Shown: positions 12,907 through 38,485 of the stretch, piece by piece | Position numbering within the stretch: position 1 is the first letter of the stretch | How the letters are laid out: each line of letters begins with the position of its first letter | Assembly (NCBI GenBank): GCA_964608665.1 | Contig: CAZSQJ010000008.1 | Location: 12,935 to 76,934 of the forward strand | DNA from: an uncultured Bacteroidales bacterium | GTDB lineage: Bacteria; Bacteroidota; Bacteroidia; Bacteroidales; CAIXZF01 | DNA: 64,000 nt | Direction: 5' to 3' | Made by a program: the position numbers and the translations under genes | The notes under the pieces: generated by a model | The model's input: the letters and a program-made list of their open reading frames with translations, nothing else | Told to the model about the DNA's origin: nothing | Database searches by the model: none

Positions 12907-13599
12907 ATGTCTGAACTCTTATGGAAATATATGGAAGAGCGCCTTCAGCAGAAAGGGTATCTTCCGGTTAATCTGCGGCATGGTCCGGTCATCACCCTGT
13001 CGCGTGAGGCGGGATGCGCTGCCAATCCCATTGCCCGGGCCCTTCTGAGACTGATACAGCAGGAGAGACCTGCAAAAGAGAAGCAGTGGAAAATTGTGAA
13101 CAAGGAGATTGTTCATGAGGCAGCCAGGGAGCTGGAGATCTCTCCGGACAAGATATCTTATGTATTCAAGGCTGAGGAAAGGAAATTGCTGGATGAGATG
13201 CTTGCCGCCCTGACATCCCGCTATTACAAGAGTGATCAGCGGATAAGGAAGACCATCACCGGGGTGATCCGCAGGATTATCGACGACGGCTACGTGATTA
13301 TGGTGGGACGCGGCGGGGTTGCCTTTACAAGAGGAAAGACCAATACGCTCAACGTCTTCCTGCAGGCGCCCCTGGAGTGGCGGATCCGAAATGTGTCAGA
13401 AAAATACCGCATCCCTTATGACAAAGCTGCCGTGATGGTGGCAGCCACCGACAAGGAAAGAAAACTCCTTACCGAACATTTCCAGGGGAAGAAGGTTGAT
13501 CCCGCCATATACGATGTCATCATCAATGTTTCCAGTTTCAGCATCGAACAGACTGCGGAACTGCTGTACCAGATGGCAAAGGACAAATCCCTTATCTGA
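12907..13599 (+). CDS. Cytidylate-kinase-like family protein (P-loop-like NTPase)
   Basis: The N-terminal ITLSREAGCAANPIARAL pattern is typical of the cytidylate kinase-like 2 family. 230 aa. Confidence 0.6.
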   Translation: MSELLWKYMEERLQQKGYLPVNLRHGPVITLSREAGCAANPIARALLRLIQQERPAKEKQWKIVNKEIVHEAARELEISPDKISYVFKAEERKLLDEMLAALTSRYYKSDQRIRKTITGVIRRIIDDGYVIMVGRGGVAFTRGKTNTLNVFLQAPLEWRIRNVSEKYRIPYDKAAVMVAATDKERKLLTEHFQGKKVDPAIYDVIINVSSFSIEQTAELLYQMAKDKSLI

Positions 13600-13603
13600 T
13601 CCC

Positions 13604-14710
13604 ATGAACCCGGGCCGGCCTGTCCTGCTCCTTGATGAAACCAGGGCAAGACAAAATCTTGAGCGGATGGTACAGAAAGTTCACGCCGCAGGAGTGTGCT
13701 TCAGACCGCATTTCAAAACACATCAGTCGCATGAAGTCGGACGCTGGTTCAGGGAAAAGCAGGTGACCGCCATCACCGTTTCATCTGTGCACATGGCCAC
13801 CTATTTCATTCAGGACGGCTGGACGGACATCACCATCGCTTTTCCACTCAATATTCACGAAATCAACCTATTAAACAGCATACCTGAGGCCATCAGCATT
13901 GGATTGCTGGTCAGTACACCGCAGACGGCGCAAAAACTCTGCGAAACGGCAGGCAGGCCTTATCACTGCTGGATAGAAGCCGATACGGGATTCGGGCGTT
14001 CCGGGATTGAGGCTTCAGATACGCATGCATTCAGGCAGGTCATTCAGATTTTGCAAAGCAATTCCCTGCTCAGGGTCAGCGGACTGCTCTCTCACTTCGG
14101 ACATACCTACCAGGCAAAGGACATACCGGAAGTGAGCAGGATATACAACAGCGGCATGGAAGCCCTGCAAGCCTTACGCAGCCAGTTGCTCCCCGTTTGC
14201 CCCGGCCTGAAGATCAGCGTCGGTGACACCCCGTCATGCAGCATGCTGGCCGATTTCGGGCAGGCCGATGAACTCAGGCCCGGCAACTTCATTTATTACG
14301 ATCTGATGCAGGCCGCCATCGGCGCGTGCAGCGTCGGAGACATTGCCATCGCCCTGTCCGTGCCCGTGGTGGAAGTGCATCCCGCCAGAAGGCAGGTCAT
14401 CGTCCATGGCGGATCGGTACATCTCTCGAAAGACAGCATGCCTGACGAACAAGGCCGTCCTGTCTATGGCAGGGTCTGCCGGCTGGAAGGTTCCGTCTGG
14501 GGTTCTCCCCTGGAAAACGCATTTGTGAAGAGCCTGAGTCAGGAACACGGGGTGCTGCAGTTCCGGTCAACCATCCCCGCAGATATCGAAGCGGGCAGCC
14601 TGCTGGCTGTTTTGCCGGTACACAGCTGCCTTACCGCCGATGCCATGGGAGCCTGCCTGGGTTCCGGCGGCCGGGTGATCTCCATGTTCGACAAAACCAG
14701 GATTTATTGA
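13604..14710 (+). CDS. PLP-dependent alanine-racemase-fold enzyme of the D-serine dehydratase / D-threonine aldolase (DSD1) type
   Basis: FRPHFKTHQS contains the PLP-lysine motif. I chose the ATG at 13604, because the track start at 13496 overlaps the preceding gene and gives an implausible N-terminus. Confidence 0.7.
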   Translation: MNPGRPVLLLDETRARQNLERMVQKVHAAGVCFRPHFKTHQSHEVGRWFREKQVTAITVSSVHMATYFIQDGWTDITIAFPLNIHEINLLNSIPEAISIGLLVSTPQTAQKLCETAGRPYHCWIEADTGFGRSGIEASDTHAFRQVIQILQSNSLLRVSGLLSHFGHTYQAKDIPEVSRIYNSGMEALQALRSQLLPVCPGLKISVGDTPSCSMLADFGQADELRPGNFIYYDLMQAAIGACSVGDIAIALSVPVVEVHPARRQVIVHGGSVHLSKDSMPDEQGRPVYGRVCRLEGSVWGSPLENAFVKSLSQEHGVLQFRSTIPADIEAGSLLAVLPVHSCLTADAMGACLGSGGRVISMFDKTRIY

Positions 14711-14711
14711 T

Positions 14712-14814
14712 TATACCGAATGAACACAGGAATGCGAAAAAAGTGTTTCAAGCGTCATCGGTATAACTGAATATAAACGAAAATTGCTGCGCATTTTCCA
14801 AAAGATTCAGCATA
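14712..14814 (+). repeat. Copy A of a roughly 103-nt multi-hairpin intergenic repeat
   Basis: 85% identical without gaps (15 mismatches in 103) to 29249-29351. Outer stem TATACCGA/TCGGTATA, inner stem AACAC/GTGTT, second hairpin CTGAAT/ATTCAG enclosing GAAAAT.GC/GCATTTTC. Confidence 0.8.
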
Positions 14815-14837
14815 CCTTTACATTAAAATACATCAAT

Positions 14838-15929
14838 ATGAAAATCTGTGCTGTTTTCATTCTGCTGGTTGCATTCTGGTACGATGCATTCACCCAAACC
14901 ATCTCCTCACCCGAAAGCGTCACCCTGGATCCCGCCACAGGGAATTATTACATTTCCTGTCCCGGCAATCATACCATCCTGAAAAGGGATCCTGCCGGAA
15001 ATCTCAGTGTCTTCCAGCCCTCTTCCCCCTGGTGTTCCGCTCCCAAAGGGCTCTGTATCGTCAACAATGTTCTCTATGCCACCGATATCACCTATGTCAG
15101 GGCTTACGACCTCGACAGCGGCACCGTGGTGATGAGCCTGCTGATCAATGATGCAGTCTTCCTGAATGATATCGTAGCTGACGGGAACGGGCAATACCTG
15201 TATATCACCGATACCCAGGGCTGGAAAATTTACAAACTTGATATCACCAGTCAAACGGCAACTCCCTGGCTGACCACCGGTATCGTGTCACCCAATGGCA
15301 TTTACTGCGACTATATGTCGAACCGCCTGCTGATCGTGGAGTTCAGTTCGAACGCCACCATCAAGAGCATCGACATGACCACCCAGGCCATCCTCACCCT
15401 GGTGGCCAATCCGCCTGCCATGCTTGACGGGATCACCCGTGATTCACAGGGGTACTGGTATATTTCGAGCTGGGCCACCAATAAAGTGTACCGGTATCAC
15501 CACAGCCTGCTCGGTACACCCCTCGAAGTGAGCGTGAGCGGCACCGTAAACGGGCCGGCCGATGTCTATGTGAACAGGCTGGCTAATCCCGAGATCCTTG
15601 CGATCCCAAGCATGAACAACAACCAGGTATATTTTGTCCCGCTCGTATGGACAGACCTGAATGAAAACTGTCCACCGGAAACACCACGGCTCTACCCCAA
15701 TCCAGGCAGGCAGCAAACTACCCTGGAATATTTTGGCGATTGTGGTAATGATGTAAAGATCAGGATAGTATCCATGCAGGGACAGGAAGTAGGCTGCCTG
15801 CGTAACCAGTTGACAGAAAGCGGATTGCAGCGACAGTCTCTGGAAACCGGACAGCTAATCCCTGGCTCCTATCTGGTTTGGCTGCAATGCGGCAACAAGG
15901 ACTACCGCCTGCCCTTAACCATAAATTAA
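14838..15929 (+). CDS. Secreted beta-propeller protein (SMP-30/gluconolactonase/NHL-like) with a T9SS type-A C-terminal domain
   Basis: Signal peptide MKICAVFILLVAFWYDAFTQ (ATG at 14838, internal to the track ORF). Repeated propeller-blade-like segments. CTD LYPNPGRQQTTLEY...GSYLVWL. Confidence 0.65.
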   Translation: MKICAVFILLVAFWYDAFTQTISSPESVTLDPATGNYYISCPGNHTILKRDPAGNLSVFQPSSPWCSAPKGLCIVNNVLYATDITYVRAYDLDSGTVVMSLLINDAVFLNDIVADGNGQYLYITDTQGWKIYKLDITSQTATPWLTTGIVSPNGIYCDYMSNRLLIVEFSSNATIKSIDMTTQAILTLVANPPAMLDGITRDSQGYWYISSWATNKVYRYHHSLLGTPLEVSVSGTVNGPADVYVNRLANPEILAIPSMNNNQVYFVPLVWTDLNENCPPETPRLYPNPGRQQTTLEYFGDCGNDVKIRIVSMQGQEVGCLRNQLTESGLQRQSLETGQLIPGSYLVWLQCGNKDYRLPLTIN

Positions 15930-15993
15930 TCTCCTGCCGGGGGGTCTTTTGAACAAATGCCCGGAGCGCTTGTTTAAGAACGAAAAACAAGGC

Positions 15994-16779
15994 ATGAGAA
16001 ACAACATTACCTATTTTATCTGGGCCGGCGCAATTGTGCTGCTCGGAGCCATTACCCTTTCCGCTTTTTCCCCCACGGGAGCTCCCGCAGGTTACACCGG
16101 TTCTCCCGGCGACGGTCAGAACTGTACTTCCTGCCATGGCGGAACGGCTACCACGGTGAATAACTGGATCAGTTCCAACATTCCCGCTGCAGGTTACATC
16201 CCCGGGCAGACCTACCAGATCACCGCCACCAACAACCACAGTGGTAGTGAGAAATACGGCTTCCAGGTTTCCCCCCAAAATCTTTCCGGCACGCTGATGG
16301 GCACACTCACTGCCGGCACCAACAACAAGCTGGTGGGCAACAACAAGTATGTGACACATATGCTGGCCAATAATACCGACAATGTGTGGACATTCAGCTG
16401 GACAGCCCCCCCGGCAGGCAGCGGCACCGTTACTTTTTACGGGGCATTTGCCCGCGGAAATCCCGGACCGGTAGCGCTTTCCACCCTGGCCGTCACCGAA
16501 AACACCACCGGGATTGAAAACCCGGCGGATCAGCATGAGAACTTCCGGATTTACCCGAACCCGGCCTCTGATCATGTGAGCCTGCAGCTTCCTACAGGTT
16601 CAGCAGGACAGGTCAGCATCCGTCTGAGTGACCTTCGCGGCGGCATGAAGGTTCTCGAGCAGACCATCCCTTCAGGTACCAGCCACCGTCTCGATTGCAG
16701 CGGTCTCCCGAAAGGGATCTATTTCGTCGATATCAGCACCGGAACAGACAAATACACTGAGAAGCTGATCCTGCAGTAG
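15994..16779 (+). CDS. Secreted protein with an N-terminal CxxCH motif and a T9SS type-A C-terminal domain
   Basis: Signal/TM segment ITYFIWAGAIVLLGAITLSAFS. GYTGSPGDGQNCTSCHGG, with the CTSCH codons at 16123-16137. CTD FRIYPNPASDHVSLQL...GIYFVDI. Confidence 0.7.
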   Translation: MRNNITYFIWAGAIVLLGAITLSAFSPTGAPAGYTGSPGDGQNCTSCHGGTATTVNNWISSNIPAAGYIPGQTYQITATNNHSGSEKYGFQVSPQNLSGTLMGTLTAGTNNKLVGNNKYVTHMLANNTDNVWTFSWTAPPAGSGTVTFYGAFARGNPGPVALSTLAVTENTTGIENPADQHENFRIYPNPASDHVSLQLPTGSAGQVSIRLSDLRGGMKVLEQTIPSGTSHRLDCSGLPKGIYFVDISTGTDKYTEKLILQ

Positions 16780-16806
16780 GCAGCGATCCGGCCTGACCGG
16801 TCTGCC

Positions 16807-18015
16807 TTAAGGGATTTCAAGCAGGAAGTCCCTGAGGTTCATGAGTTCAATTCCCCTGTGGTTACCCCTGGCAAACGCATCGAGGGTAACCACAAACTTT
16901 TTGAAATTGTCGCGAATCAACAGCAGGTTGCCAAACTCCCTTTCAAATGTTTTTTCTTCTGCGACACTCAGAGCCACCTGAACATAGATTGTTTGATCAT
17001 CCTTTGTGGCAATGAAATCGATTTCTTTATCAGCCAGTTTCCCGACATAAACCTGCCAGGAATCCTGCAGCAGATGCCGGTAAACCATACTTTCAATATA
17101 TTTATGGATGTTCTTGGGATCCCAGGCTTTGATAATGTGACTCAATCCAAGATCCTCGAAATAAAATTTATCATTCACCTCAAACAGGCGTTTCCCGGCT
17201 ATATCGTATCGTTTTACCCGGTGTATGAGGTAGGATGACTCAAGAAAATGCAAATATTCAAGTATCGTCCTGGCAGAAATCGCTATATGCTGTGATTTTA
17301 AAAATCCACTGATTCTGTTGGCAGATATCAGGCTGCCGGTATTATCGGCAATAAATGCCATCAGGTTGTTCAGAAAGCTGAAGTTCCGAACATTGAACCT
17401 TTGAACGATATCGCGGAATAAGATAGTATTCAGCACATTACGAAGATACTCCTGGCGAACCAGGGTATTGTCCTCCAAATGAATGAGAAAAGGTAGGCCT
17501 CCCTCCTGCATGTACTTCCACATCGCTTCAGGAGTATTATCCAGCTTGTGAAATAGAAGGTATTCACCGTATGAAAGGCAATGAATCTTAATTTCCACAT
17601 ATCGTCCCGACAACATTGTGGCCAGCTCACCGGAGAGCATTGTGGCATTGCTCCCCGTACAATAAACATCGAAACATCCCTGGGCAATCATTCCCCTCAC
17701 TGCTTTCTCAAAATTTGCAATCTCCTGTATCTCGTCAATAAACACAAAACACTGCCCTGCTGCCGGCTTCCTTTCCTTAACGTAATTCCACAGGCTGAGG
17801 TCGTCCCGGATACCGTCATAATCCGGATGTTCTTTATTGATATAGATGATCGTTGCATCAGGATGCTTCAGGCGGATATAATCGATCGTCTGCAGCATAA
17901 TATAGCTTTTTCCCGAACGCCTCTGACCTGTAAAAACCTTGATCAAAGGCTTTCCGATGAAAGGGAGTACCCGGTTCAGGTAACTACTGCGCGGAATAAA
18001 GTCTGGTGTTTCCAT
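16807..18015 (-). CDS. AAA-family ATPase with a DUF4143-like C-terminal domain
   Basis: Walker A GQRRSGKSY, Walker B FVFIDEIQ, and a C-terminal restriction-endonuclease-like region (EIDFI...YVQV). The local sequence is visibly AT-richer than its neighbours. Confidence 0.75.
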   Translation of the reverse strand: METPDFIPRSSYLNRVLPFIGKPLIKVFTGQRRSGKSYIMLQTIDYIRLKHPDATIIYINKEHPDYDGIRDDLSLWNYVKERKPAAGQCFVFIDEIQEIANFEKAVRGMIAQGCFDVYCTGSNATMLSGELATMLSGRYVEIKIHCLSYGEYLLFHKLDNTPEAMWKYMQEGGLPFLIHLEDNTLVRQEYLRNVLNTILFRDIVQRFNVRNFSFLNNLMAFIADNTGSLISANRISGFLKSQHIAISARTILEYLHFLESSYLIHRVKRYDIAGKRLFEVNDKFYFEDLGLSHIIKAWDPKNIHKYIESMVYRHLLQDSWQVYVGKLADKEIDFIATKDDQTIYVQVALSVAEEKTFEREFGNLLLIRDNFKKFVVTLDAFARGNHRGIELMNLRDFLLEIP

Positions 18016-18077
18016 TTGTGTATTATGATAAATAAAAAACCAAATATACGCATTTTATTTATCATGATAAAAATTTA

Positions 18078-20855
18078 TCAGAGCAGATAACTCCCGTTCA
18101 CATCTCCCATACAGATTGCTTTGACTGAAAGGGTGATTTGCCGGGATGCTGCGGCACTGAATGGGGCCGGTTCAAAATACCAGTCACCCGCCGGGAAGGC
18201 ACTCACGGCACCGATAAAGCGTTTCCCGATATGGAGGGCATCCAGGCTGTTGATCACCTGGTTATTGTCCACATCGGCTGCTTTGAGCGGAAGTCCCGTC
18301 AGTTGTAAAAGATGGACGAAATGCCGCAACACCAGCAGGGCGTCGGTGGCGTTGCTTCCACCCCATGGGAGTGAGGTATTGCATGCCAGTTCATACTGTC
18401 CGCGCAACAGCCTGCTGAACCCGAAGCAGCCATCATTGCCGGTCTCCGTTTGGGCAATGGTATCTCCTTCAGCCATCAGCCTTATCAGCGTCACCGGAAG
18501 CGGTGATGCGGCGGTGTTTGCATAAGACAGCGTACCAATGAGGGAATATTTCCCCAGGTCAAGCCGGTGGTTTCCCGGCGGCAGGAGGATCACGGAATCG
18601 ATGATCCCGTCCATACCTGTATGGCAGGCACCCTGCAGGCTGTCATCCAGGAAGCAGTAAACGCTGTCCATCACGGCCATATCGCCGGCCCAGAGCCTGA
18701 CCGTCCTGTTGCCCGGAAGGATTCCCGCCTGATGCTCCCTGATACCGGTATCGCCTTTGGCACTAAAGAGACACAGCACATCCCCAAGGTCGGCACCGGC
18801 GGTGCAGGAGTTCAATATTGCCACCCCTTCAGCCTGGGCCACAGCGCTGCTGTCGCCGATGCGTATGGCATGAAGAAATGTAAGGCTGTCGGTAATGCTG
18901 CCGGGCCGTACTTCCAGTCGCCAGCGTCCCGGACTTCCATGAATGGTATCGGGTGCGGCCAGGGGAGGGTAATTTGTGCCGTCGACCCAGTATTCATATC
19001 CGTTTCCGCCTGTCAGGCGAATGGAAGGATCAGGCGGCAGCAGGGTACGGATGGCCAGGTTGCCGCCACCGTTGGTAACTATGACGTCTGTTGCATCAAA
19101 ATCCATGATGTGTCCCGGTACCTCCTCCCCTGTCATCGTTCCGCTCACCTGGGGCTGATGCACCGTATGGAATACCAGGCAGGCATCGCGCTGTGCCGCA
19201 GCCATATGGTTGAGCAGCACATGATCCGCCACCAGAACGCGGCCGGGCTTGAGGAAGAGCAGCCGGCGCGTAAAGTTTCTGACCCTGGCAGTATCATAGG
19301 AAAGGCTTGCATCGGCGTGACTGAAAGACCAGCCGTTGCCTGTGGCATACCTTATCCACTTACCGCGTTGAAAGGCAGGAGCGAAAATATCGCTGTAATT
19401 CATCAGCGCCTGTGAATAAATCTGTCCGCCGTCATTGGCAACCACTTCATTGCCATACAGGAATACGCTGTTTGAATCGTACACGCACAGGCTGTTATGG
19501 GCGATGGTACGGGTGTAGTAATTTTTAAAGTGACTTCCGCCGTAGGTATCATAGCTGCCGGCATCGATGAGCAGGGGTTTATGGTGAAAAATGGCAAAGC
19601 TGTTGTTATCGCGGTGTTCATGCGAAGCCCTTTTGGACGGGGAATTAAAAAACCATACGAGTGTAGCATCGGTATCCCAGGAGGTGCGGCTCACGCTCAG
19701 TCCGACCTTGTCTGCCCACCAGTTCAGCGGCGGAGCAGGTTTGGCCACCGGCGGCATGCTGAAATCCATATACAGCAGCTTACGAAACACAGGCACAGTC
19801 CAGGTGAGGAAAGCTGCCTGGGAATAGTACTGTGCCATCCAGCGGCTGCGGTCATCCTGGAACAGCTGTGCATGGCGGTAGATCACATTGTCGGCAGTAA
19901 GGCCCGTCATCCCGTCACCAAGGTGTATGGTCCAGTGGTCGGGCCGGATGAAATACCAGTATTGGTTGATGGATTCCTGCACCCACGGAAGGTCGGCAAA
20001 GAAGTTCTTTCCGGTGGCAAACAGCATATCGTCGAAAAGCTGGAACTGGTCAGTAAGGCTCCACATCGCGTATGCGGCGCCCCAGTTCCAACCGCCGTCG
20101 TCGTCGCGGTAGTATGAATAGCAGGGCAGGAAGCCGTTTATCCACTTGTCGTAAACCACCTGGTACCAGCTCATCACGGTATCCTGCTGTCCGTTGTTCA
20201 GGCCGCCGGCCTGGTAAAGGGCCAGGTTGTTCCGCATGGCGAAGACGCAGTTCAGGGCATTATGACTGGAAACATAACTGTTGCCGGCAGAGGACAGGAT
20301 ATACAGGTTCATGAACGTCCGCTGCATGCGGTAGTGTGCCAGGGCAAGCTGTTGGCGGCCGGCCTCGGGCAGGGAATCGTAGCCCCAGTCGAGCAGCAGG
20401 GAAGCAGCATCGCTGAAGGTACGGATCAGCGTTTCCCGCTGGTACCATTCCATCTGGCCGAGGTTCACCGTATCTAGGTATTCCGTGCATTTCCTGACCA
20501 GAAAGCGGCATCGTTTCAGTTGGATTGGTTCATGGTTCACCTTCCAGAGGAAGACGGTGAACACTGCCTGCCACTGGGCCCAGGGAGAAGCCCATGTCCA
20601 TGTCCAGAGGCTCGTATCCGATCCGGTCATATACAGTTCCGGGTCGTTGATCCAGTTGTTGTTGTAGCGGTTCAGGAAATCATTGTAGGTAGCGCCGCAT
20701 TCGCCCTGGGTGCGGTTTTGTGCGATCCAGTCAAGCCGCCCGGCGGAAGCGAATACCCTTGGCCGAGAGGAGTGAATGGCGGGGTATTGCTGGGCCGGCA
20801 AAGGACAGAACGGTAAAAAGCAAAGCAGGAAGAACAGCCTGGATTTCATATTCAT
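18078..20855 (-). CDS. Heparinase II/III-like (polysaccharide lyase) protein with a C-terminal beta-sandwich plus dockerin-like module
   Basis: Signal peptide MNMKSRLFFLLCFLPFCPLPAQQ. HEHRDNNSFAIFHHKPLLIDAG resembles the Hepar_II_III core motif. The C-terminus is LPWGGSNATDALLVLRHF...AADVDNNQVINSLDALHIGKRF...PAGDW...MGDVNGSYLL. There is no T9SS CTD. Confidence 0.65.
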   Translation of the reverse strand: MNMKSRLFFLLCFLPFCPLPAQQYPAIHSSRPRVFASAGRLDWIAQNRTQGECGATYNDFLNRYNNNWINDPELYMTGSDTSLWTWTWASPWAQWQAVFTVFLWKVNHEPIQLKRCRFLVRKCTEYLDTVNLGQMEWYQRETLIRTFSDAASLLLDWGYDSLPEAGRQQLALAHYRMQRTFMNLYILSSAGNSYVSSHNALNCVFAMRNNLALYQAGGLNNGQQDTVMSWYQVVYDKWINGFLPCYSYYRDDDGGWNWGAAYAMWSLTDQFQLFDDMLFATGKNFFADLPWVQESINQYWYFIRPDHWTIHLGDGMTGLTADNVIYRHAQLFQDDRSRWMAQYYSQAAFLTWTVPVFRKLLYMDFSMPPVAKPAPPLNWWADKVGLSVSRTSWDTDATLVWFFNSPSKRASHEHRDNNSFAIFHHKPLLIDAGSYDTYGGSHFKNYYTRTIAHNSLCVYDSNSVFLYGNEVVANDGGQIYSQALMNYSDIFAPAFQRGKWIRYATGNGWSFSHADASLSYDTARVRNFTRRLLFLKPGRVLVADHVLLNHMAAAQRDACLVFHTVHQPQVSGTMTGEEVPGHIMDFDATDVIVTNGGGNLAIRTLLPPDPSIRLTGGNGYEYWVDGTNYPPLAAPDTIHGSPGRWRLEVRPGSITDSLTFLHAIRIGDSSAVAQAEGVAILNSCTAGADLGDVLCLFSAKGDTGIREHQAGILPGNRTVRLWAGDMAVMDSVYCFLDDSLQGACHTGMDGIIDSVILLPPGNHRLDLGKYSLIGTLSYANTAASPLPVTLIRLMAEGDTIAQTETGNDGCFGFSRLLRGQYELACNTSLPWGGSNATDALLVLRHFVHLLQLTGLPLKAADVDNNQVINSLDALHIGKRFIGAVSAFPAGDWYFEPAPFSAAASRQITLSVKAICMGDVNGSYLL
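18081..18550 (-). other. Beta-sandwich plus dockerin-like module (copy 2 of 4)
   Basis: Aligns by eye with 3241-3708. It forms the extreme C-terminus of the lyase-like protein. Confidence 0.6.
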
Positions 20856-21054
20856 GGTAATTTCTTTAACACTGATCGCCTGACAGTTTGATTAACATTG
20901 ACAAATCTCAGCCCGTTCATATCAACTGATTGCCGTTTCACCTTTAGTCCACACAAGAAATGGGTGTAAATATAGATTATATATTGGTATTTGAATGGAC
21001 CTTTTAACACCAAACCTAGTTGTCAACAATAAGCTGGACAATCAAATTTTGCAG

Positions 21055-21062
21055 TAACTTTG
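21055..21062 (+). promoter_or_regulatory. Bacteroidota-type -7 box (TAnnTTTG) upstream of the methyltransferase
   Basis: TAACTTTG lies 16 nt upstream of the ATG at 21078, in an AT-rich spacer. Confidence 0.4.
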
Positions 21063-21077
21063 TGTAAAGAAGACTGA

Positions 21078-21959
21078 ATGATGGAAATCAGGACTGATAT
21101 TTACCTGGGAGACAGCAAGGAAATCCTGAAAGGGTTGGACGACAATTCGGTTGATCTCATTGTAACTTCTCCTCCATATGCAGATCAGCGGAACGGAACC
21201 TACGGCGGGATCAGGCATGACAGATATGTTGAATGGTTTCTTCCGGTTTCGGAGCAACTCCTCAGGGTTTTAAAACCTGAAGGCACTTTCATCCTGAACA
21301 TTAAAGAAAAGGTCGTCGATGGAGAAAGAAGCACTTATGTGATGGAGTTGATACTTGAGATGCGAAAACAAGGTTGGTTATGGACTGAAGAGTTTATCTG
21401 GCACAAAAAAAACTGCTATCCGGGCAAGTGGCCAAACAGATTCAGGGATGCCTGGGAGCGGTTGTTGCAGTTCAATAAAACCAGAAAATTCAATATGTAT
21501 CAGGAGGCTGTGATGGTGCCCATGGGGGACTGGTCTAAAAGCCGGCTCAGGAAACTCAGTGAAACCGACAAAATCAGAGATAACTCAAAGGTGGGAAGTG
21601 GTTTCGGGAAGAATATATCGAACTGGTTGACACGTGACAAGGCCTATCCGACCAATGTACTGCATCTTGCAACGGAGTGCAGCAATAAAAATCACAGTGC
21701 AGCATTCCCTGAAGAACTTCCTGAATGGTTTATTAAGCTGTTTACCAGAGAAAATGACATCGTACTAGATCCTTTTATGGGATCTGGCACAACCCTTATC
21801 GTCGCAAACAGGATGATGAGGCACTCCATTGGTATAGATATCATGCGTGAATACTATGAAATGGTAAAAAAATCAATTAAGCCGGTTGAACTATACCTCC
21901 TTGAATCACAGGAACACTATGACGTCATTAAATCTGTCAGACGTATATCACTACGTTGA
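21078..21959 (+). CDS. Type II DNA methyltransferase, beta-class N4-cytosine/N6-adenine family (SPPY type)
   Basis: Motif IV DLIVTSPPY is near the N-terminus and motif I DPFMGSGTT is near the C-terminus, which is the beta-class permutation. SPPY is most often seen in N4-cytosine enzymes. Confidence 0.85.
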   Translation: MMEIRTDIYLGDSKEILKGLDDNSVDLIVTSPPYADQRNGTYGGIRHDRYVEWFLPVSEQLLRVLKPEGTFILNIKEKVVDGERSTYVMELILEMRKQGWLWTEEFIWHKKNCYPGKWPNRFRDAWERLLQFNKTRKFNMYQEAVMVPMGDWSKSRLRKLSETDKIRDNSKVGSGFGKNISNWLTRDKAYPTNVLHLATECSNKNHSAAFPEELPEWFIKLFTRENDIVLDPFMGSGTTLIVANRMMRHSIGIDIMREYYEMVKKSIKPVELYLLESQEHYDVIKSVRRISLR

Positions 21960-22662
21960 GGAAAACATTGCCACTTTTCACAGGAAGCGGATTCACAGCC
22001 TGGACGGTTTAAAACTAAGCCAGATTCTTAAACGAAAGAATCCATATTTATTCAAGGCAAAATACCTGCTGACATCAGAGGCCATCATCAAAAGCCTCCT
22101 TGATGCTCACATTTCATCAAACGAAGAAACTATTTTCGGGGACTGGCTGGAAGGACTTGCAATATTCATAAACAACAAAGTTTATGGCGGTAAAAAATCT
22201 GGTATCAAAGGAATTGACCTCGAGTTTGACATTGAAGACAAACGATATATCGTAAGCATCAAATCCGGACCAAATTGGGGCAACAGTTCCCAGATCACAA
22301 AAATGATTTCTGATTTTAAAACCGCTTCAAAGGTATTGAGAACAAGCAACTCTGGAATAATTGTGGTAGCTGTGAATGGTTGTTGCTATGGCAAAGACAA
22401 ATACCCGGATAAGGGTGAATATTTTAAGTACTGCGGTCAGCGTTTCTGGGAGTTCATTTCCGGCTCATCAAACCTGTATACGGATATTATTATTCCACTC
22501 GGATATCAGGCAAAAGAAAGAAATGAAGCATTCACCATATCATATACACAGATGATCAACAGATTTACAAAAACATTTTCAAATGATTTCTGTAATGATA
22601 ATGGCGAAATTGACTGGGTGAAGCTTGTCGAATTCAATTCAAAAACAGTATCTGAAGGTTGA
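21919..22662 (+). CDS. Putative cognate type II restriction endonuclease (PD-(D/E)XK-like)
   Basis: Lies immediately downstream of and overlapping the methyltransferase (41 nt with the ATG at 21919; the track TTG start is at 21886). Candidate catalytic segment GIDLEFDIEDKRYIVSIKSG. I recognise no other family. Confidence 0.55.
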   Translation: MTSLNLSDVYHYVEENIATFHRKRIHSLDGLKLSQILKRKNPYLFKAKYLLTSEAIIKSLLDAHISSNEETIFGDWLEGLAIFINNKVYGGKKSGIKGIDLEFDIEDKRYIVSIKSGPNWGNSSQITKMISDFKTASKVLRTSNSGIIVVAVNGCCYGKDKYPDKGEYFKYCGQRFWEFISGSSNLYTDIIIPLGYQAKERNEAFTISYTQMINRFTKTFSNDFCNDNGEIDWVKLVEFNSKTVSEG

Positions 22663-22831
22663 ATGATCATCCCTTCATCACGGAAAACATCCATATATAC
22701 CGGCACTTAGCATCAATGTGGTTCCATCACGCAATTGTCTGATCGTTGGCGGTTATGCCGTTGCTTTCCATAAGCATCCGCAGCCGAAAAGTTTTTACCT
22801 TCGCAGGCAACATCAGGAATTTCTAAACACC

Positions 22832-23716
22832 ATGGGTTTATACCGCCGCAGGATATTCGCCGGGATCAGGCAATGTGACCTTCCTCTTACCGGGAAGATC
22901 TCCAATCTGCTGGCAACATGCTTCCTTCCGCCGCCGCAGGCCGAAGTCACCATACAGACAGGCCACGGCTTCAGGATGACCATCAACCCGGTAATTGATG
23001 CCGGGGTTGAGAGAAGCCTTTACCGTTTCGGCACCTATGAGCCGGGAACCCTGCACTGGATGCGGCTATTGCTGGCTGAAGGGGATTGTTTTGCCGATGT
23101 GGGGGCCAATATCGGACTGATGTCGCTGTACGCGTCAAAACTGGTTGGAGATAAAGGCCGGGTGATCGCTTTTGAACCAAACCCGGTAACGCGGGAGCTG
23201 TTGTTCCGCAACATCGCCCTTAACGGCTACAGCAACATCAAGGTGGAGGAGTACGCGGTATCTGCAGAAGTCAAAGCAGGAAAGATCTACGACCGCTGGG
23301 ACGTAAACCGGGGCGGTGCCACACTGATAAAGCCATCCGGGGATGTCACAGGCTATAATATCCGGGAGACCAGCCTGACATCATATTTCACCGGTCAGGC
23401 CGGACCTGACCTGGTGAAAATCGACATCGAAGGGTACGAACTTGAAGCACTGCGGGGAGCCCTGGGCCTGTTGCAGGGGGAAAAACCTCCCGTTCTGATC
23501 GTGGAATGTTCGGCCGTAAGGGCTGTCAACTACCACATGAACGTAAAGGATATCTTCGATCTGGTCACTGCCTGCGGATACCGGGTTTTTAAATCAAAGA
23601 AGGAAAAGATCAAGGGTTTGCGGGAGGTTCTCACTGCCGGTACACTTCCGCTTCACGACAATATTTACTGTTTCCCTGATAAACTGCCGGATAGGATTCG
23701 CCGACTGCTTCCCTGA
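22832..23716 (+). CDS. FkbM-family SAM-dependent methyltransferase
   Basis: FADVGANIGLMSLYASKLVGDKGRVIAFEPNP and KIDIEGYELEAL motifs. I chose the ATG at 22832; the track GTG start at 22718 adds an unrelated-looking 38 aa. Confidence 0.75.
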   Translation: MGLYRRRIFAGIRQCDLPLTGKISNLLATCFLPPPQAEVTIQTGHGFRMTINPVIDAGVERSLYRFGTYEPGTLHWMRLLLAEGDCFADVGANIGLMSLYASKLVGDKGRVIAFEPNPVTRELLFRNIALNGYSNIKVEEYAVSAEVKAGKIYDRWDVNRGGATLIKPSGDVTGYNIRETSLTSYFTGQAGPDLVKIDIEGYELEALRGALGLLQGEKPPVLIVECSAVRAVNYHMNVKDIFDLVTACGYRVFKSKKEKIKGLREVLTAGTLPLHDNIYCFPDKLPDRIRRLLP

Positions 23717-23725
23717 GATGAGGGC

Positions 23726-23825
23726 CATACCGAAAGCACACAGGAATGCCGTGTGTGTTTCCAGAGTCATCGGTATGATTAATCTCAACGAAAATTGGAC
23801 CGCACTTTCATTTCGATTCAGTATA
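23726..23825 (+). repeat. Copy C of the multi-hairpin intergenic repeat (more divergent, small indels)
   Basis: The outer stem is CATACCGA/TCGGTATG, a compensatory T>C with A>G change relative to copies A and B. The inner stem is CACACA/TGTGTG. Its 3' end overlaps the last 6 codons of the minus-strand glycosyltransferase. Confidence 0.7.
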
Positions 23826-24881
23826 ATCTTCCAGGAGTTTAAGCAGGGATAGGCCACGCTTTTCCAGTGAATAATTTCGCATGATATGCTCCCGGGCCTT
23901 TTGCCCTGCGGCTTCCATTTTGCCTGTCTGCAGTGCTTTGCCGGTCAACTCCCTGAGCATTCCGGGGTCACGTTTTTGCAGGACAAAGCCGGATTCGCCG
24001 GCAATCCCCGGAAGGATATTGACCACGGACACGATCGGGATACATTCGCAGAGCATGGCTTCGCAAAGGGCGAGTCCAAATCCTTCGAAAACACTCAGTT
24101 GCATATGGAAGCGACATCGGCTGTAGAGGTGCCTTAATTCCTCCATTGACATCCGGCCGGTAAATACCACATTGGGGGGAAGCTTTCCGGAGGGAGGCGA
24201 ACAGCCGGCAATATGGAACCGGCAGCCGGGAAAATCCTCCGCCACCTTTAAAATAAGGTCACCGCCTTTCAGCATAAACTGGCCTTCCCCAATGACTGAG
24301 ACAAAGGCATTGTCTTCTTTCCGGACTGCCGGAAGTTTCTGCCAGAAAAGGGTATTCAGCCCGTTACTGATCACCGTGTAAGGCGTCTTCAGATTCGGGA
24401 AGAAGTGTTTGAACCCCTGCCTGTTTTCTGCAGGGTTTCCGCTGTCGTAATAGTCATTTTCCGTATAGGCCAGTGATTCACTTACCGGCAGCAGCCTTGT
24501 CGCCAGGCGCATCGCAGTCCTGCATGCGGCCCTGGACAGTCTTTTCCGCAGGCTGCCGTAGGGGATCGACGGTATGGATGCACATTCCGTACCATGAAGG
24601 ATGAGAAAGACCGGTTTGCCGGTCAGTCTGCCAAGCAGGCCCGGCAATACGGCCCAGTAGCCGGCGAAAGAAATAAAGATAGCGTCTGTTTCCCACAGTT
24701 CCCGGCAAAACATGAACACCTGCCTCAGGAGATTGACGGGAACTGAGCTGGCTTTCCTCCACGGAAAAAGCTGGGAAACCACCCGGCAGTGCTTTCCCAG
24801 CAATTCGAGATCGTTTTTCACGAAGCCCGAATCGACCGGTGATATGTAAATGATCTTGCTGATGGCTTTTTGATCAGGCAT
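23808..24881 (-). CDS. GT4-family (group 1) glycosyltransferase
   Basis: EGFGLALCEAM (E-x7-E region) and a typical GT-B C-terminal half. I chose the ATG at 24881; the track TTG start is at 24902. Confidence 0.8.
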   Translation of the reverse strand: MPDQKAISKIIYISPVDSGFVKNDLELLGKHCRVVSQLFPWRKASSVPVNLLRQVFMFCRELWETDAIFISFAGYWAVLPGLLGRLTGKPVFLILHGTECASIPSIPYGSLRKRLSRAACRTAMRLATRLLPVSESLAYTENDYYDSGNPAENRQGFKHFFPNLKTPYTVISNGLNTLFWQKLPAVRKEDNAFVSVIGEGQFMLKGGDLILKVAEDFPGCRFHIAGCSPPSGKLPPNVVFTGRMSMEELRHLYSRCRFHMQLSVFEGFGLALCEAMLCECIPIVSVVNILPGIAGESGFVLQKRDPGMLRELTGKALQTGKMEAAGQKAREHIMRNYSLEKRGLSLLKLLEDYTESK

Positions 24882-24947
24882 GCCGGGTTTGAATTTCGGC
24901 AAAGATACGCAGGCGGGGAAATGCCGGCGCCACTTCCCTTGATTTTC

Positions 24948-26225
24948 TCAGAAAACAGTCCTGGAACCGTTCACATCACCGTAACACAGTCCTTTGATCG
25001 TCACCTGTACATTGCTGCTGCCGTCGAACAGCACTTCAGGATTTTCGAAAAGCCAGTCTCCGACCGGGAATCCAAAAATCAAGCCCACAAACCGTTTGGC
25101 TGCCAGGAGGGCATCGGTGGCATTGATGATATGGTTACCGTCGAGGTTTCCGGCTTCTTCCCTCAATCCGGCAAGGCCGCCCAGTCCAACGAACTGCTTC
25201 AGGATCAGCAGGGCATCGTCGGAGTTGACCCCGCCCCAGGGGATGTCTGTCTCAGTGACCAGCCTGTAGATGCCGGGTGAGAGTGCAGGAAAGGAAAAAC
25301 TGCCGTTTGCATCAGTAATGGCAGAATCGGCAATGGTACAGCATCCCACTTTGAGGGACACCTTCACACCGGCCAGGGGTGTTGAATCCGCGTTGTCGTA
25401 GAAAACAATTCCGCCAAGGTCAGCCAGTCCCAGCAAGGTTTCGTATGCAATGGCGGCATCGAAGGTTTCGTTCACCAGTTGCGGTGCTACCAGCTGGGTT
25501 GCGGCGGCATTGGGATGGCTGTCCCATGCAGACACTGCATAGGCCGGGTTCAGGTAGCCCTGAGCATTGGCGACTTTATGGAAATAATCGAATACGTACA
25601 CATTGGGAGGGAATTGTCCGTAAAGCGGGTCAAGGCCGGCAGCCAGGGTATCTTTGGCCCATTTGCTGAAGCGGTGGGAACGCTGGGCTTCATTGTAATT
25701 GGTGGCATTCTGAACCAGTGGCGCATTGGTCCAGATCACGAAAAAATGATCCGGGTGGCTTTCCATTACAGCCACAAATTTCCTCCAGTGCCATTTGTAA
25801 TTGTACACCGTTTTCAAGGTGGGATTCAGGGTGTCTGACGCCTGTCCTTCGGCCACAATGTTAGAACAGGGATAACAGGACTTGATCATCAGGACGGGAT
25901 TCCCGGCGAAGAAACTGAACACATTTTCGGGGTAGGCATCCGTAAAGATGGTATGCCAGGTTGACCATTCATTATCGCTGAAGGAAGGGAACCAGGTTTC
26001 CGTCATACTGACGGCCTGGGCTCCAGAGTATCCGTGTGCCTGGTTGTAAATCTGGATTTGCTGGGGAACGCTTGTAGTACTGCCGTTTGGCCCCCAGATA
26101 TTCCCGCCGGTACTGTGATGCAGGAAGATTCCGTTACGGATGACCGGATTCTGGCCGTATGTCAGACCAGCGATCATGAGTACCAACACCAGGCTGATGG
26201 GACGGTTCAGATTGGAATGGACCAT
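24948..26225 (-). CDS. Secreted protein with an N-terminal SGNH/GDSL-like hydrolase candidate domain plus a C-terminal beta-sandwich and dockerin-like module
   Basis: Signal peptide ISLVLVLMIAGLTYGQ. FLHHSTGGNIW near the N-terminus and WDSHPN (D-x-x-H-like block V) give weak support for an SGNH-like fold. The C-terminus is IPWGGVNSDDALLILKQF...GNLDGNHIINATDALLAAKRF...PVGDW...YGDVNGS. Confidence 0.6.
   Translation of the reverse strand: MVHSNLNRPISLVLVLMIAGLTYGQNPVIRNGIFLHHSTGGNIWGPNGSTTSVPQQIQIYNQAHGYSGAQAVSMTETWFPSFSDNEWSTWHTIFTDAYPENVFSFFAGNPVLMIKSCYPCSNIVAEGQASDTLNPTLKTVYNYKWHWRKFVAVMESHPDHFFVIWTNAPLVQNATNYNEAQRSHRFSKWAKDTLAAGLDPLYGQFPPNVYVFDYFHKVANAQGYLNPAYAVSAWDSHPNAAATQLVAPQLVNETFDAAIAYETLLGLADLGGIVFYDNADSTPLAGVKVSLKVGCCTIADSAITDANGSFSFPALSPGIYRLVTETDIPWGGVNSDDALLILKQFVGLGGLAGLREEAGNLDGNHIINATDALLAAKRFVGLIFGFPVGDWLFENPEVLFDGSSNVQVTIKGLCYGDVNGSRTVF
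24951..25420 (-). other. Beta-sandwich plus dockerin-like module (copy 3 of 4)
   Basis: Aligns by eye with 3241-3708 and 18081-18550. Confidence 0.6.
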
Positions 26226-26228
26226 ATC

Positions 26229-26630
26229 TCAGAGTTTGCTGATTTCGAAAGTGCCCGCATCGACTGTTTGCCTGTTACGGGTGATCTCCACCCGTTTCAC
26301 GACCGCAGTTTGGCCGGCAAGGGTGGTATCTTCGGCAAAAACATAAAGGGTATAATGGCCTTTACGCAGGTATTTGAACTCAAAACGTCCGTCGGGACCG
26401 GTTCTGATCCGGTCACTGTAACTGACATCATCACCATAGACAATATATACCCATTCATCTGCCCCCATATACGTACCCTGGATCACCAGCATGTTCACAT
26501 TGTAATCCGTGACATGGACGGCACCGGTAATTGCGGAATTGCCGCCGGTTCCGGCTTCCTTTTCGCAGGATGCCGTCATCAGGGCAAAGAGGACAAGGAT
26601 CAGGAATCCTGGTTTACGGTTACGCATCAT
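26229..26630 (-). CDS. Small lipoprotein with a carboxypeptidase-regulatory/transthyretin-like beta-sandwich; paralog of 32140..32553
   Basis: Lipobox-like LMTASC. About 45% identity by eye to the 137-aa protein at 32140..32553 (shared CEKE.G.GG, GDD.SYS.R.RT..DG.FEF.YLRKGHY). Confidence 0.7.
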   Translation of the reverse strand: MMRNRKPGFLILVLFALMTASCEKEAGTGGNSAITGAVHVTDYNVNMLVIQGTYMGADEWVYIVYGDDVSYSDRIRTGPDGRFEFKYLRKGHYTLYVFAEDTTLAGQTAVVKRVEITRNRQTVDAGTFEISKL

Positions 26631-26654
26631 GGGTTTATTATTTAAGAGCTCAGG

Positions 26655-29192
26655 TTATGGAAGGTATATCATTTTCAAACTTTTCACCGTATTTCCGGTT
26701 CTGAAGTCCAGGATGTATAATCCGGGACTGAGGTTCAGGGATGCAGGGTTCAGTTTGATGAAATGTTTTCCGGATTCGAGCCTGTTAACCTGCGGCAGTA
26801 CTTCTGACACTAATTTCCCGTCCGGTGTGTACAGTTTCAGGCTGACGAAGGCTGCGGCAGGCAGGTCGACCACCACGGTAGTCAGGTCTCTGGAAGGAGA
26901 CGGAAAGAGATAGGCTTGCGGTGCGGAAGGTTTTTCCGGTACCGGATTCACCGGGGTGATCAGTGAAAAATGGGCCACCAGGGTATCGCTTTGATTCAGG
27001 TTGACCAGGGCCGTATCGGAAGCAGCATTCGGGATGAAGTTCTGGGTATTGGACGACCAGTGATCGAAACAATAGCCGGCATTGGCATAGGCTTCGAGCC
27101 TGGTGCCGATCCCGCCGAAGTAGGTTCCGGTCCATGGGTAAATGAACAGCGGCAGCGAATTGAGCACCACCGAACCGGCATCGGGCGGGTCCACTTTCAC
27201 GGTTACCTGGAAGGGACCATTGAGCCCGTAGCAGTTGGTGAAGCCGTTGCTGAGCCAGGCACATCGCTGGCTGATAAAATCGCGCAGTTCCTGCACATTG
27301 GATTTCCATTCGGTGTATGTACCGTTCCATCTTTGCGCCTGCCTGGTCATTTCAGGATCGATGATCGCTTCTGTACTGTCGAGCTGTGCAAGCATATTAT
27401 CGCAACTGAATACCGTATTCCAAAGGTCAATTTGCCGGGTGATATAATATCTGTTCACTTCAGGGTTTTGTCTGAGATGGTTGAGCAGGGCCATGTGTCC
27501 CTTGGGATCGGAAGAACCCGTCAGCCCGTCCACATTGCAGGGATTTGCCTGAGGGGTGGTATTGGGAATGTTCGTATAATTGATATAATGGCCGAAAGTG
27601 GCATCATTGTCCCACAGTATCCACCCCCATTTAAGGTGGGTTCCGGTACTGTCGAGCCCGCGCCACCATCCCAGGTTCCAGTTGAGCCAGTCGGAGCAGA
27701 CCGTCATTGAATTTACGATCACATAATCGACCAGACTTCTGTAATCGATATAGGTATTCATGTAATTATAATTGGCCGGGCTGGCCATGTTCATGGCCAT
27801 GACTGTGTTATAGAGTGCATTCCAGTCGTTGATGGCCTGCGTGCCGCCATATTCGGCCCAGGTGCTGCCCCAGTGCAGGATGAACTGCAGGTTGTACTTA
27901 TCCTGGCCGTAATAATAGCTGGTATAATCATGATCGTCGCATTTCTCCCGGATGTCATATACGCCCCAATACTGGCCATTAAGGTAGACGACAGCTTTCT
28001 CGGAACGCCGCAGGTTCAGGTGCATTCCCCCGATATCGGCAAGGCTGTGGATGTATGCATCGCGCAAATGGGCACTGCCTTCGTTGGCGGAATGATGGTC
28101 GGCCGGGTAATTGTCATCTCCGGCAGCCCTCAGGATGATGCGCTGGAAATTCTTGCGGTACGACCAATGGAAGAGATATTCCTCGATACTGTGGTTATAG
28201 GCCATTTCATCGCGGGAGATGAAATCGATGCTTCTGTGGCTGAGTGCCCATGAATCCTGTCCGTGCTTGTTAAACTCTCCGTAAGTGGTAGCAGTGCGTT
28301 CGCCGTTAATGTTGAAATACTCGAACGATCCGTGGGGTTCCAGGGATGAATTCCCGTTGGCAAGCGTGTTCAGCTGGGTTCCGGCAACGGAAACAACGAC
28401 GGTGGTATGGTTTTCATTGATAAAATAGGTATTGAACCTGACCAGGCTTGGGAGCACTTCGGGATCGGCGCTGATGGTGATGGCTTTAATCACTGTGGTG
28501 GCTGCTATGGTGATGGGATTCACATAGATGGGACTGGATATGCCTGGTTCCGTCCCATCCAGGGTATAATGAATATCGGCATTGGTTTCGAGGGTGGACA
28601 GGTAAATGGTGACGGGAGTATTGTAAAATCCTGCCGGAAGGTTATAATCGGGACGGTCGGCGTACCGGGCAAAGGGAGTGGCGGTGTTGTTGGAGGCGTT
28701 GATGGTGGGCGAAGTAAAAATACTCCAGGCGGAAGCCCCGTTAAGCGTTCTTCCCCGGGAATGGCCCAGGTGGGTCTTCTTGCGTAACTTCAGGGAATCC
28801 ACAATCGCACCGGAAGGGTCGGCAAGAACGATGAACTCACTGTTGTTTTTTGTTTGCGTGAGCCTGAAATTGGTATGATAATGGGTACCGGACACCATGT
28901 CCCTTCCGGATGTCCAGAACCGCCTGAACCCGTTGGCAGTGATGTTTACCCCCGCAGGTATCTGCCACTTGGTGACATTGGCAGAATCATCGCTCAGGTA
29001 ATAACCGGATAAGTCGACGGTGCTGCTGCCTGCATTGTAGAGCTCGAACCAGTCCTCGTACTTGCCGTAATTATCCTGGAACTGGGTCAGGTTGGAGCAG
29101 GAATACTCGTTGATCACAACCTGGGAATATCCCCTGAACATGCAGCATTGCAGTATCAGGGCAATAAAAGTCAATCGTAACAATTTCTTCAT
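26655..29192 (-). CDS. CotH-family protein (845 aa) with an N-terminal lamin-tail-like domain, a chitobiase/Fn3-associated-like segment and a T9SS type-A CTD
   Basis: Signal peptide. LTD-like VVINEYS...YEDWFELYNAGSSTVDLSGYYLSDD. DIHYTLDGTEP. CotH-like core RIILRAAGDDNYP...LRDAYIHSLA...VVYLNGQYWGVYDIREK. CTD YLFPSPSRDLTTVVV...GLYILDF. Confidence 0.8.
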   Translation of the reverse strand: MKKLLRLTFIALILQCCMFRGYSQVVINEYSCSNLTQFQDNYGKYEDWFELYNAGSSTVDLSGYYLSDDSANVTKWQIPAGVNITANGFRRFWTSGRDMVSGTHYHTNFRLTQTKNNSEFIVLADPSGAIVDSLKLRKKTHLGHSRGRTLNGASAWSIFTSPTINASNNTATPFARYADRPDYNLPAGFYNTPVTIYLSTLETNADIHYTLDGTEPGISSPIYVNPITIAATTVIKAITISADPEVLPSLVRFNTYFINENHTTVVVSVAGTQLNTLANGNSSLEPHGSFEYFNINGERTATTYGEFNKHGQDSWALSHRSIDFISRDEMAYNHSIEEYLFHWSYRKNFQRIILRAAGDDNYPADHHSANEGSAHLRDAYIHSLADIGGMHLNLRRSEKAVVYLNGQYWGVYDIREKCDDHDYTSYYYGQDKYNLQFILHWGSTWAEYGGTQAINDWNALYNTVMAMNMASPANYNYMNTYIDYRSLVDYVIVNSMTVCSDWLNWNLGWWRGLDSTGTHLKWGWILWDNDATFGHYINYTNIPNTTPQANPCNVDGLTGSSDPKGHMALLNHLRQNPEVNRYYITRQIDLWNTVFSCDNMLAQLDSTEAIIDPEMTRQAQRWNGTYTEWKSNVQELRDFISQRCAWLSNGFTNCYGLNGPFQVTVKVDPPDAGSVVLNSLPLFIYPWTGTYFGGIGTRLEAYANAGYCFDHWSSNTQNFIPNAASDTALVNLNQSDTLVAHFSLITPVNPVPEKPSAPQAYLFPSPSRDLTTVVVDLPAAAFVSLKLYTPDGKLVSEVLPQVNRLESGKHFIKLNPASLNLSPGLYILDFRTGNTVKSLKMIYLP

Positions 29193-29248
29193 AAATATGA
29201 TGGCTTGGTTATCAAAATTAAGTTAATTTCAGATACGCTTTATCACTT

Positions 29249-29351
29249 TATACCGAAAGAGTACAGGAATGCGAAAAATGTGTTTCCAGAGTCCTCGGTA
29301 TAACTGAATCTAAGCGAAAATTGCATTGCATTTTCACCAAGATTCAGCATA
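29249..29351 (+). repeat. Copy B of the roughly 103-nt multi-hairpin intergenic repeat
   Basis: Aligns to copy A without gaps (88 of 103 identical). It lies in the 173-nt spacer between the DUF2490-like gene and CotH-1. Confidence 0.8.
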
Positions 29352-38296: not shown

Positions 38297-38485
38297 AAAT
38301 CACGGGTAAAACCCTCCGACTGCGTCGGGATTGTTCGACTTTCAAATTTCATTGCACGATGTTTATGAAATTTGAGTCTCACAAAAATACTTCAGAACAG
38401 TGTACGGCATTACTCATTCTACCCAGCTTTTCTTCGCAAACCTGGCAAGAATGAGTATAAATAAAGCATCAGGGCTTTCAGCAGG

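Follow-up and report, generated by a model that had tools for sequence, protein, structure and literature searches.

The 64,000-nucleotide stretch analysed here – the window, C8:12935-76934 on contig CAZSQJ010000008.1 of an uncultured Bacteroidales bacterium (GCA_964608665.1), whose 4.06 Mb draft genome (G000) comprises 141 contigs and is 97.9% complete – carries three full-length copies, A, B and C, of a repeat family that we designate F1. [quoted passage not shown] F1 elements are 93-106 nt long and non-coding, have terminal inverted repeats and flanks equivalent to a TA duplication, and are dispersed in copies that are present in one genome and absent at the corresponding site of another, as MITEs are (50-800 bp; bioRxiv 10.1101/2024.01.18.576219; PMC4596501); no autonomous partner was found.

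Distribution and insertion sites of F1

The initial annotation had located the three copies exactly, all on the plus strand, and had aligned A and B without gaps at 88 of 103 positions (85% identity over 103 nt by BLAST) and C with small indels; all of this holds on reading the sequence. The family it proposed is dispersed and far above chance, with 43 matches by BLAST and 151 by two rounds of nhmmer in the source genome. About 55 of the nhmmer matches are full length, about 30 are of hairpin 1 only and about 10 of hairpin 2 only, and about 35 weak full-length matches belong to a sister family, F2. In many of the hairpin-1-only copies, hairpin 2 has lost its interior but retains its outer arms. 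Similarity among flank-aligned copies is abruptly bounded, running from TATACCGA to TTCAGTATA (a CAGTATA end). All F1 copies in this genome are intergenic; open reading frames (ORFs) that seemed to contain the repeat were artefacts of crude, over-extended calls.

The copies lie in all four gene-orientation contexts (25 divergent, 24 tandem on the opposite strand, 19 tandem on the same strand and 9 convergent), in keeping with the earlier view that they are not a consistent 5′ leader, and they are not consistently terminators either. Their orientation has no link to local gene strand, to neighbouring copies or to the sign of GC skew, the last being a weak proxy on short contigs, and this lack of strand bias fits a double-strand cut-and-paste enzyme. 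The common orientation of the three window copies was considered as meaningful and rejected; it is due to chance, because adjacent copies genome-wide are in the same orientation in 14 cases and in opposite orientations in 16. Among 86 aligned copies a T precedes ATACC in 76 and an A follows GTAT in 74, so that one base is conserved on each side; the next bases outward are variable and merely mildly T-rich and A-rich.

Direct evidence of mobility comes from G003, a syntenic sister species of the same genus that is approximately 80% identical in coding DNA. Copies A, B and C are all absent at the syntenic G003 sites. At the copy A site G003 reads TTGAT-TA-ATTTTACATT (TTGAT-TA-ATTTT) and G000 reads TTGAT-TA[TACCGA...CAGCA]TA-CCTTTACATT, such that copy A is laid out as TA (14712-13), TACCGA...TTCAGCA and TA (14813-14); the empty copy C site is CCCG-TA-TTTCC, and copy B is missing from the syntenic intergenic region. 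In the reverse comparison, 39 full-length G003 copies were fetched, 21 of which have syntenic flanks in G000, and at 18 of these 21 sites G000 lacks the element. Eight of the 18 empty sites are free of gaps, and seven of the eight fit an element placed between a pre-existing T and A; the remaining three syntenic sites are occupied in both species but are rearranged. Occupied sites are thus T[A...T]A and empty sites T|A, which is equivalent to a TA duplication around TACCGA...TTCAGTA, the kind of footprint that the initial annotation had named as a sign of MITE mobility.

Elements also land within one another. One G003 copy has an F2-like element nested at the TA of AATC-TA-AGCG in its second hairpin (L259:2128-2335, G003:C4), and at three G000 loci a new copy begins directly after AATC (C13:53030-53089, C6:74742-74803 and C26:37168-37228). 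This TA, in AATC-TA-AGCG where hairpin 2 begins, is a recurrent landing site, giving rise to nested or tandem elements.

Among 41 relatives F1 is present in G000 and G003 only, two other species of the genus being without it, and when one genome per GTDB species was scanned for the exact pattern, the sole match was 'MAG: Bacteroidetes bacterium RA.bin97', taken as G003. A maximum-likelihood tree of the 86 copies contains species-specific clades as well as older mixed ones. One clade joins 17 G003 copies, most with near-zero branch lengths, to a single G000 copy; G000-only clades comprise 13, 7 and 4 copies, with copy B in the clade of four (support 100/97). Species labels change 16 times on the tree versus 28 in shuffles (0/500 as low). 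From the coexistence of mixed and species-specific clades it follows that F1 is older than the G000/G003 split and was amplified further in each species separately.

Hairpin pairing within and between families

Single strands of F1 fold as two adjacent hairpins that share a central TATA – at approximately 14712-14765 and 14762-14814 in copy A – with plus-strand z-scores of -4.7 (A), -5.1 (B) and -2.0 (C), so that A and B greatly exceed shuffled sequence in stability and C does so less. The stems described at the outset, TATACCGA/TCGGTATA, CTGAAT/ATTCAG and GAAAAT.GC/GCATTTTC, are all present in the sequence. Pairing was counted in four helices on the 86-copy alignment, with column-shuffle and slide controls: 87.8% of cells are paired versus 87.7% in column shuffles, and there are 9 double-sided changes versus 8.8 expected. 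An alternative inner helix gave the same outcome. Stem mutations are mostly disruptive, with 4-22 unpaired copies per pair versus 0-2 compensated ones, and these counts show that inserted copies decay without regard to hairpin pairing.

The covariation that the initial annotation looked for among copies is therefore lacking across the 86. Its paired T>C/A>G change in copy C, read as compensatory, is the lone C-G among them (59 are U-A and 22 unpaired), and the 5′ partner of that pair is the flanking target base, a mutated T lying outside the element. The variation it saw in the inner stem does exist, but is mostly disruptive and not compensated.

The picture between families is different. F2 has the consensus TATACCGACACGGAACAGGTTTGCGAAAAAGTGTGTCATAGCGGTGTACGGCATAACTCAGTCTAAACAGCTTTGCATTCGCAAACCTGTCAAGACTGAGTATA and agrees with F1 in length, ends, T...A flanks and the layout of two hairpins. 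The source genome contains it in 95 strong full-length copies and 229 nhmmer matches in all, the best-matching copies (21 scored) being 96-98% identical to the consensus, which points to a recent burst. F2 is more abundant and more recent there than F1, and is represented in the window just by a truncated relative at 38397-38459. G003 and G004 carry F2 as well, and G015 and G030 have traces of it. Scanning metagenomes for the left-end pattern matched at least 120 contigs, including one that is labelled as activated sludge, and 80 loci were fetched, from which 52 distinct elements of approximately 100-110 nt were extracted. These elements have the left end in common, while at least eight sequence classes can be distinguished in the outer stem of hairpin 2, each with an exact internal complement at the same position (5′/3′): CTGAATC/GATTCAG, CTCAGTC/GACTGAG, CTCATTC/GAATGAG, CTGAAAC/GTTTCAG, CTCATAC/GTATGAG, CTCGTTC/GAACGAG, CTGGTTC/GAACCAG and CTGAATT/AATTCAG.

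In a 46-sequence alignment across families, 92.2% of hairpin-2 cells are paired versus 70.2% in shuffles (0/500), and 112 cells are changed on both sides versus 33 expected, counts that related rows inflate; the eight stem classes remain as independent cases. Double changes are found at 10 of 12 pairs and G-U is nearly absent. The segment of the constant left end that closes hairpin 1 differs from family to family. Covariation this strong, almost without G-U, argues for a requirement for the palindrome at the DNA level, and we infer that palindromic structure matters in this way for elements that spread and is irrelevant after landing.

The apical loop of hairpin 2 occurs in both complementary forms (TTT/AAA, TTCG/CGAA) in otherwise near-identical copies among loci L138-L214; for example, L140 and L142 have CCCGCC-TTT-GGCGGG and the -AAA- form, and L176 and L198 have ATGC-TTCG-CAT and ATGC-GAAG-CAT. 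Judged by the sequences, such flips would be a signature typical of template switching in DNA palindromes.

These data bear on the proposal that F1 is a multi-copy structured small RNA, or a cis-regulatory or terminator family, maintained because it serves the host. Both strands form a stable two-hairpin fold, paired columns are slightly closer to the consensus than unpaired ones (identity 0.92 versus 0.84), and several copies lie just past stop codons, those at 14710, 23716, 23808 and 29366 being where the initial annotation placed them and copy A beginning 1 nt past the TGA of ORF 13496..14710. Yet 86 copies show no covariation and mostly disruptive stem mutations, copies are not kept at orthologous sites between the sister species, and they have no fixed orientation relative to flanking genes. 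The hairpins of the three window copies have no following U-tract, and the avoidance of G-U and the loops that flip to their complement between families are the behaviour of DNA and not of RNA. Rfam, which the initial annotation had suggested scanning, matched no family: nothing in the whole window reached gathering thresholds, and nothing meaningful appeared around copy A at E <= 10, where the best match by E-value had 19 bits against a threshold of 49. As the origin of F1 an RNA family is already largely refuted, and we regard it as highly improbable.

Terminal repeats and the presumed mobilizing enzyme

Two blocks, TATAC and an inner (C)AGG-W-W-TGCGAA with a free spacer between them, are common to the left end (27 nt) and the reverse-complemented right end. 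The two ends match at 16/27 positions in F1 (TATACCGAAAGAACACAGGAATGCGAA versus TATACTGAATCTTAGTGAAAATGCGAA), at 20/27 in F2 and at 14-18/27 in six other families or copies, the two-block match being found in all eight sequences tested (14-20/27; shuffle p from 0.036 to <0.0001). The inner block of the left end forms the 'loop' of hairpin 1, GGAATGCGAA, which explains why few stretches are better conserved.

A TA duplication together with two-block inverted ends is the signature of DDE transposases of the IS630/Tc1-mariner type, and because F1 has both, an enzyme of this type is, by a little over even odds, its mover. The element is built from a 27-nt left end (TATACCGAA, a 9-nt spacer and GAATGCGAA) and a right end that is an inverted, imperfect copy of it (reverse complement TATACTGAA, a 9-nt spacer and AAATGCGAA), with an interior complementary to each end, such that a single strand folds into two side-by-side hairpins. 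A transposase supplied in trans would bind the two-block ends, cut the element out and insert it at a TA dinucleotide, which would end up on both sides. The hairpins, or the palindromes underlying them, would matter for spread; compensating changes preserve them between sister families (F1, F2 and at least eight metagenomic variants). Effects on neighbouring genes – a longer gap in operon-like pairs, or an ORF 23808..24902 that gains another C-terminal tail and stop – would be side effects of insertion.

Several results weigh against this interpretation. The cognate transposase was not found in G000-G004, G015, G030 or the 80 metagenome loci, all draft bins, yet the 96-98% identity of F2 copies to their consensus implies recent activity. 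Profile searches of G000 and G003 gave no match to DDE_3, mariner Transposase_1, DDE_Tnp_1_2, DDE_Tnp_4 or TnpB; DDE_Tnp_1 and rve are likewise without a match in G000 and have one each in G003. Candidate partners did not fit: the single IS4-type element of G003 has unrelated ends, as does the IS630-type (DDE_3) gene of G015 (TATATAATGTCTA...), and none of the TATACCGA-type termini present in the G030 locus bracket its IS630-type (DDE_3) gene. Across families the 8 nt at the left terminus do not change, whereas right-end positions 7-10 vary freely and covary with an internal arm rather than with the left end, a variation that a plain end-binding model does not predict; the commonest metagenomic variant lacks most of the right-end inner block. 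Finally, sequence does not discriminate between a TA duplication and an insertion, free of duplication, between T and A.

Multi-copy insertion sequences routinely drop out of draft bins, so that absence of the enzyme is not established. Self-BLAST of G000 revealed no assembled multi-copy insertion sequence, G004 has no match to the DDE_3 profile, and no viral contig matched the repeats. The largest frames of the 14 smallest contigs in the bin, inspected by eye and not run against the profile library, included no transposase-like ORF. Searching the genome for paired end motifs 0.4-5 kb apart, as a 9-mer with one mismatch, was far too noisy. Matches to the terminal 27-30 nt alone in G004, G015 and G030 were considered as transposase-bearing elements and are further MITE variants, and in metagenome loci L146 and L206 the end pairs that lie far apart belong to two separate elements with ordinary genes in between.

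In G000 a single transposase was detected, a Y1/HUH protein of 151 aa (C70:332-787), and a different mechanism could be built on it, in which F1 is a hairpin-ended single-strand transposon or a REPIN/BIME-like element whose hairpins are recognized as ends by a Y1 enzyme (HUH, of IS200/IS605 or RAYT type) that cuts T^A without duplication. The start codon of this gene is 31 nt from an F1 copy, and the sole strong Y1 match in G003, of visibly different sequence, is approximately 190 nt from one; both proteins pass the NCBIfam IS200/IS605 model (cut-off 55; 64.9 bits for the G000 protein). Each F1 end has its own hairpin, the left hairpin is rebuilt from different segments across families, and a transposase that recognizes hairpins on a single strand would explain the between-family covariation, with its two-sided, nearly G-U-free changes in the hairpin-2 stem. 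The empty sites fit insertion without duplication equally well.

The target does not. IS200/IS605 elements have a target of 4-5 nt on the left flank only, whereas F1 is constrained on both flanks by one base each, and neither the left-only target nor the strand bias relative to replication of an IS200/IS605-derived element (PATE) was found, orientation being unlinked to GC skew or to neighbouring copies. The hairpins of F1 reach its very termini and its ends have a two-block inverted repeat in common. Nor does the presence of the repeats track that of the gene: there are five Y1 matches in G001 and three in G002, both of which are without F1 or F2, and the Y1 loci of G004 and G030 have no F1/F2-type element. 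On NCBIfam REP_Tyr_transpos the G000 protein scores 23.8 bits against a cut-off of 80, and the G003 protein has no match at E <= 0.01.

Moreover, the G000 Y1 gene is flanked by different palindromes of its own, five units of a GC-rich palindrome (CTATAAACAT..GACCCC-N4-GGGGTC) directly following it within 330 nt. The palindrome looks like the cognate repeat of the Y1 gene itself, in a REP/RAYT-style pairing separate from the MITEs. We therefore consider a Y1 mover of F1 unlikely. Of the three options that the initial annotation had offered, the small MITE is the one retained, a REP/BIME-like nature is weaker, and the small-RNA family is not supported. About as doubtful as a Y1 mover is the broader idea that the F1/F2 superfamily is the non-autonomous form of an undescribed transposon type from an uncultured Bacteroidota order, which would require terminal DNA hairpins in cis and insert at T^A, its mover being either a Y1/HUH enzyme whose target is unusually short or a transposase of some family outside the profiles tried.

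The GC-rich unit, CTATAAACAT-RY-GACCCC-N4-GGGGTC, recurs at a spacing of approximately 52 nt in small clusters at about nine G000 loci. Upstream of the G003 Y1 gene (L259:1200-1480, G003:C4) are three tandem units of approximately 60 nt, each with a small CCCTGCAAGGG palindrome.

Window features and relationship to known elements

The coordinates of the repeats and associated features are collected in Table 1. The final 18 nt of copy C form the last five codons and stop of the minus-strand ORF 23808..24902 (364 aa); since copy C supplies the 3′ coding end of this ORF, its insertion appears to have replaced the original C-terminal end of the gene. The truncated copy at 38397..38459 has the hairpin-2 stem CTCATTC/GAATGAG and ends in GAGTATA|A.

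Table 1. Positions of F1, F2 and associated repeats in the window (plain numbers) and on other contigs of the source genome (C numbers)
Feature	Position	Strand	Details
Copy A, full-length F1, 103 nt	14712..14814	+	nhmmer 91 bits, model positions 1-100
Copy A, left terminal inverted repeat	14712..14738	+	TATACCGAA, 9-nt spacer, GAATGCGAA; 15/27 positions match right-end reverse complement
Copy A, right terminal inverted repeat	14788..14814	+	reverse complement TATGCTGAA, 9-nt spacer, AAATGCGCA
Copy C, full-length F1, diverged subfamily	23726..23825	+	nhmmer 80 bits; left target T mutated to C
Copy B, full-length F1, G000-specific four-copy subfamily	29249..29351	+	nhmmer 101 bits
5′-truncated sister-family copy (hairpin-1 tail and whole hairpin 2)	38397..38459	+	F2-model nhmmer 57 bits
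Weak degenerate superfamily remnant, uncertain	51333..51424	-	F2-model nhmmer 32.8 bits; ends unrecognisable
F2 example copies	C47:2943-3046; C18:538-641; C7:41002-41105
GC-rich palindrome clusters	C70:1-330 (L258); C16:55562-56898; C21:50691; C24:16843-16951; C80:14276; C103:41-143

F1 and F2 together account for approximately 300 matches and 0.7% of the genome, and should be masked as mobile repeats and not annotated as RNA genes or regulatory motifs. They explain many of the contig breaks in the G000 bin, and their insertions are dated markers separating the two sister species, with separate recent bursts of F1 in G003 and of F2 in G000. The free decay of copies after landing, set against the conservation of hairpins between families, draws a clean line between the requirements of a spreading element and those of its host. 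Two pairs of G000 contigs, C32:20778-38252/C71:25-17491 (17.5 kb) and C106:158-7709/C108:48-7599 (7.6 kb), are 99.9% identical and are probably assembly or binning redundancy.

Bacterial MITEs that duplicate TA and are tied to IS630/Tc1-mariner transposases include RUP from Streptococcus pneumoniae and the enterobacterial ERIC/MITEEc1, of which MITEEc1 has been filed under IS630 (bioRxiv 10.1101/2024.01.18.576219); a TA duplication is also made by the Correia element of Neisseria. F1 resembles all three in being approximately 100 nt, non-coding and intergenic, in having tens to hundreds of copies, inverted ends, TA on both sides and stable single-strand hairpins, and in decaying after insertion. 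It differs from their descriptions, which rather than sequence comparison set it apart, in that its ends are two conserved blocks with a free 9-nt spacer and pair with the interior, not with each other over their length, giving two adjacent hairpins. The F1 superfamily also has a constant left end, a variable right end, and no known parent or partner transposase.

Within the Bacteroidota, F1 and F2 are comparable to the MITEs of Porphyromonas gingivalis (BrickBuilt, MITE239 and others), which are likewise non-coding, intergenic and inverted-ended, with ends resembling those of resident insertion sequences (PMC4596501). BrickBuilt has an internal 23-nt minisatellite and ends like those of ISPg1/ISPg9 (PMC4596501). 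Unlike BrickBuilt, F1 and F2 have no internal tandem repeat, and they have different ends and no parent insertion sequence that we could find.

A REP is a short, GC-rich palindrome that has a conserved 5′ tetranucleotide, and two REPs in inverted orientation make up the single hairpin of a REPIN; REPINs and BIMEs are reportedly mobilized by RAYT (Y1) transposases, a finding credited to Nunvar in 2010, Bertels and Rainey in 2011 and Ton-Hoang in 2012. Like them, F1 and F2 are hairpin-forming intergenic repeats of approximately 100 nt with hundreds of copies, compensating changes and a Y1 gene beside a copy. Unlike REPINs, they are AT-rich, are flanked by TA, have inverted ends of two blocks and form two hairpins that are unrelated to each other, and in contrast to the REPIN/RAYT system the local Y1 gene has GC-rich palindromes of its own. 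F1 represents a new family of MITE-type elements, or more exactly a superfamily, and not a new RNA.

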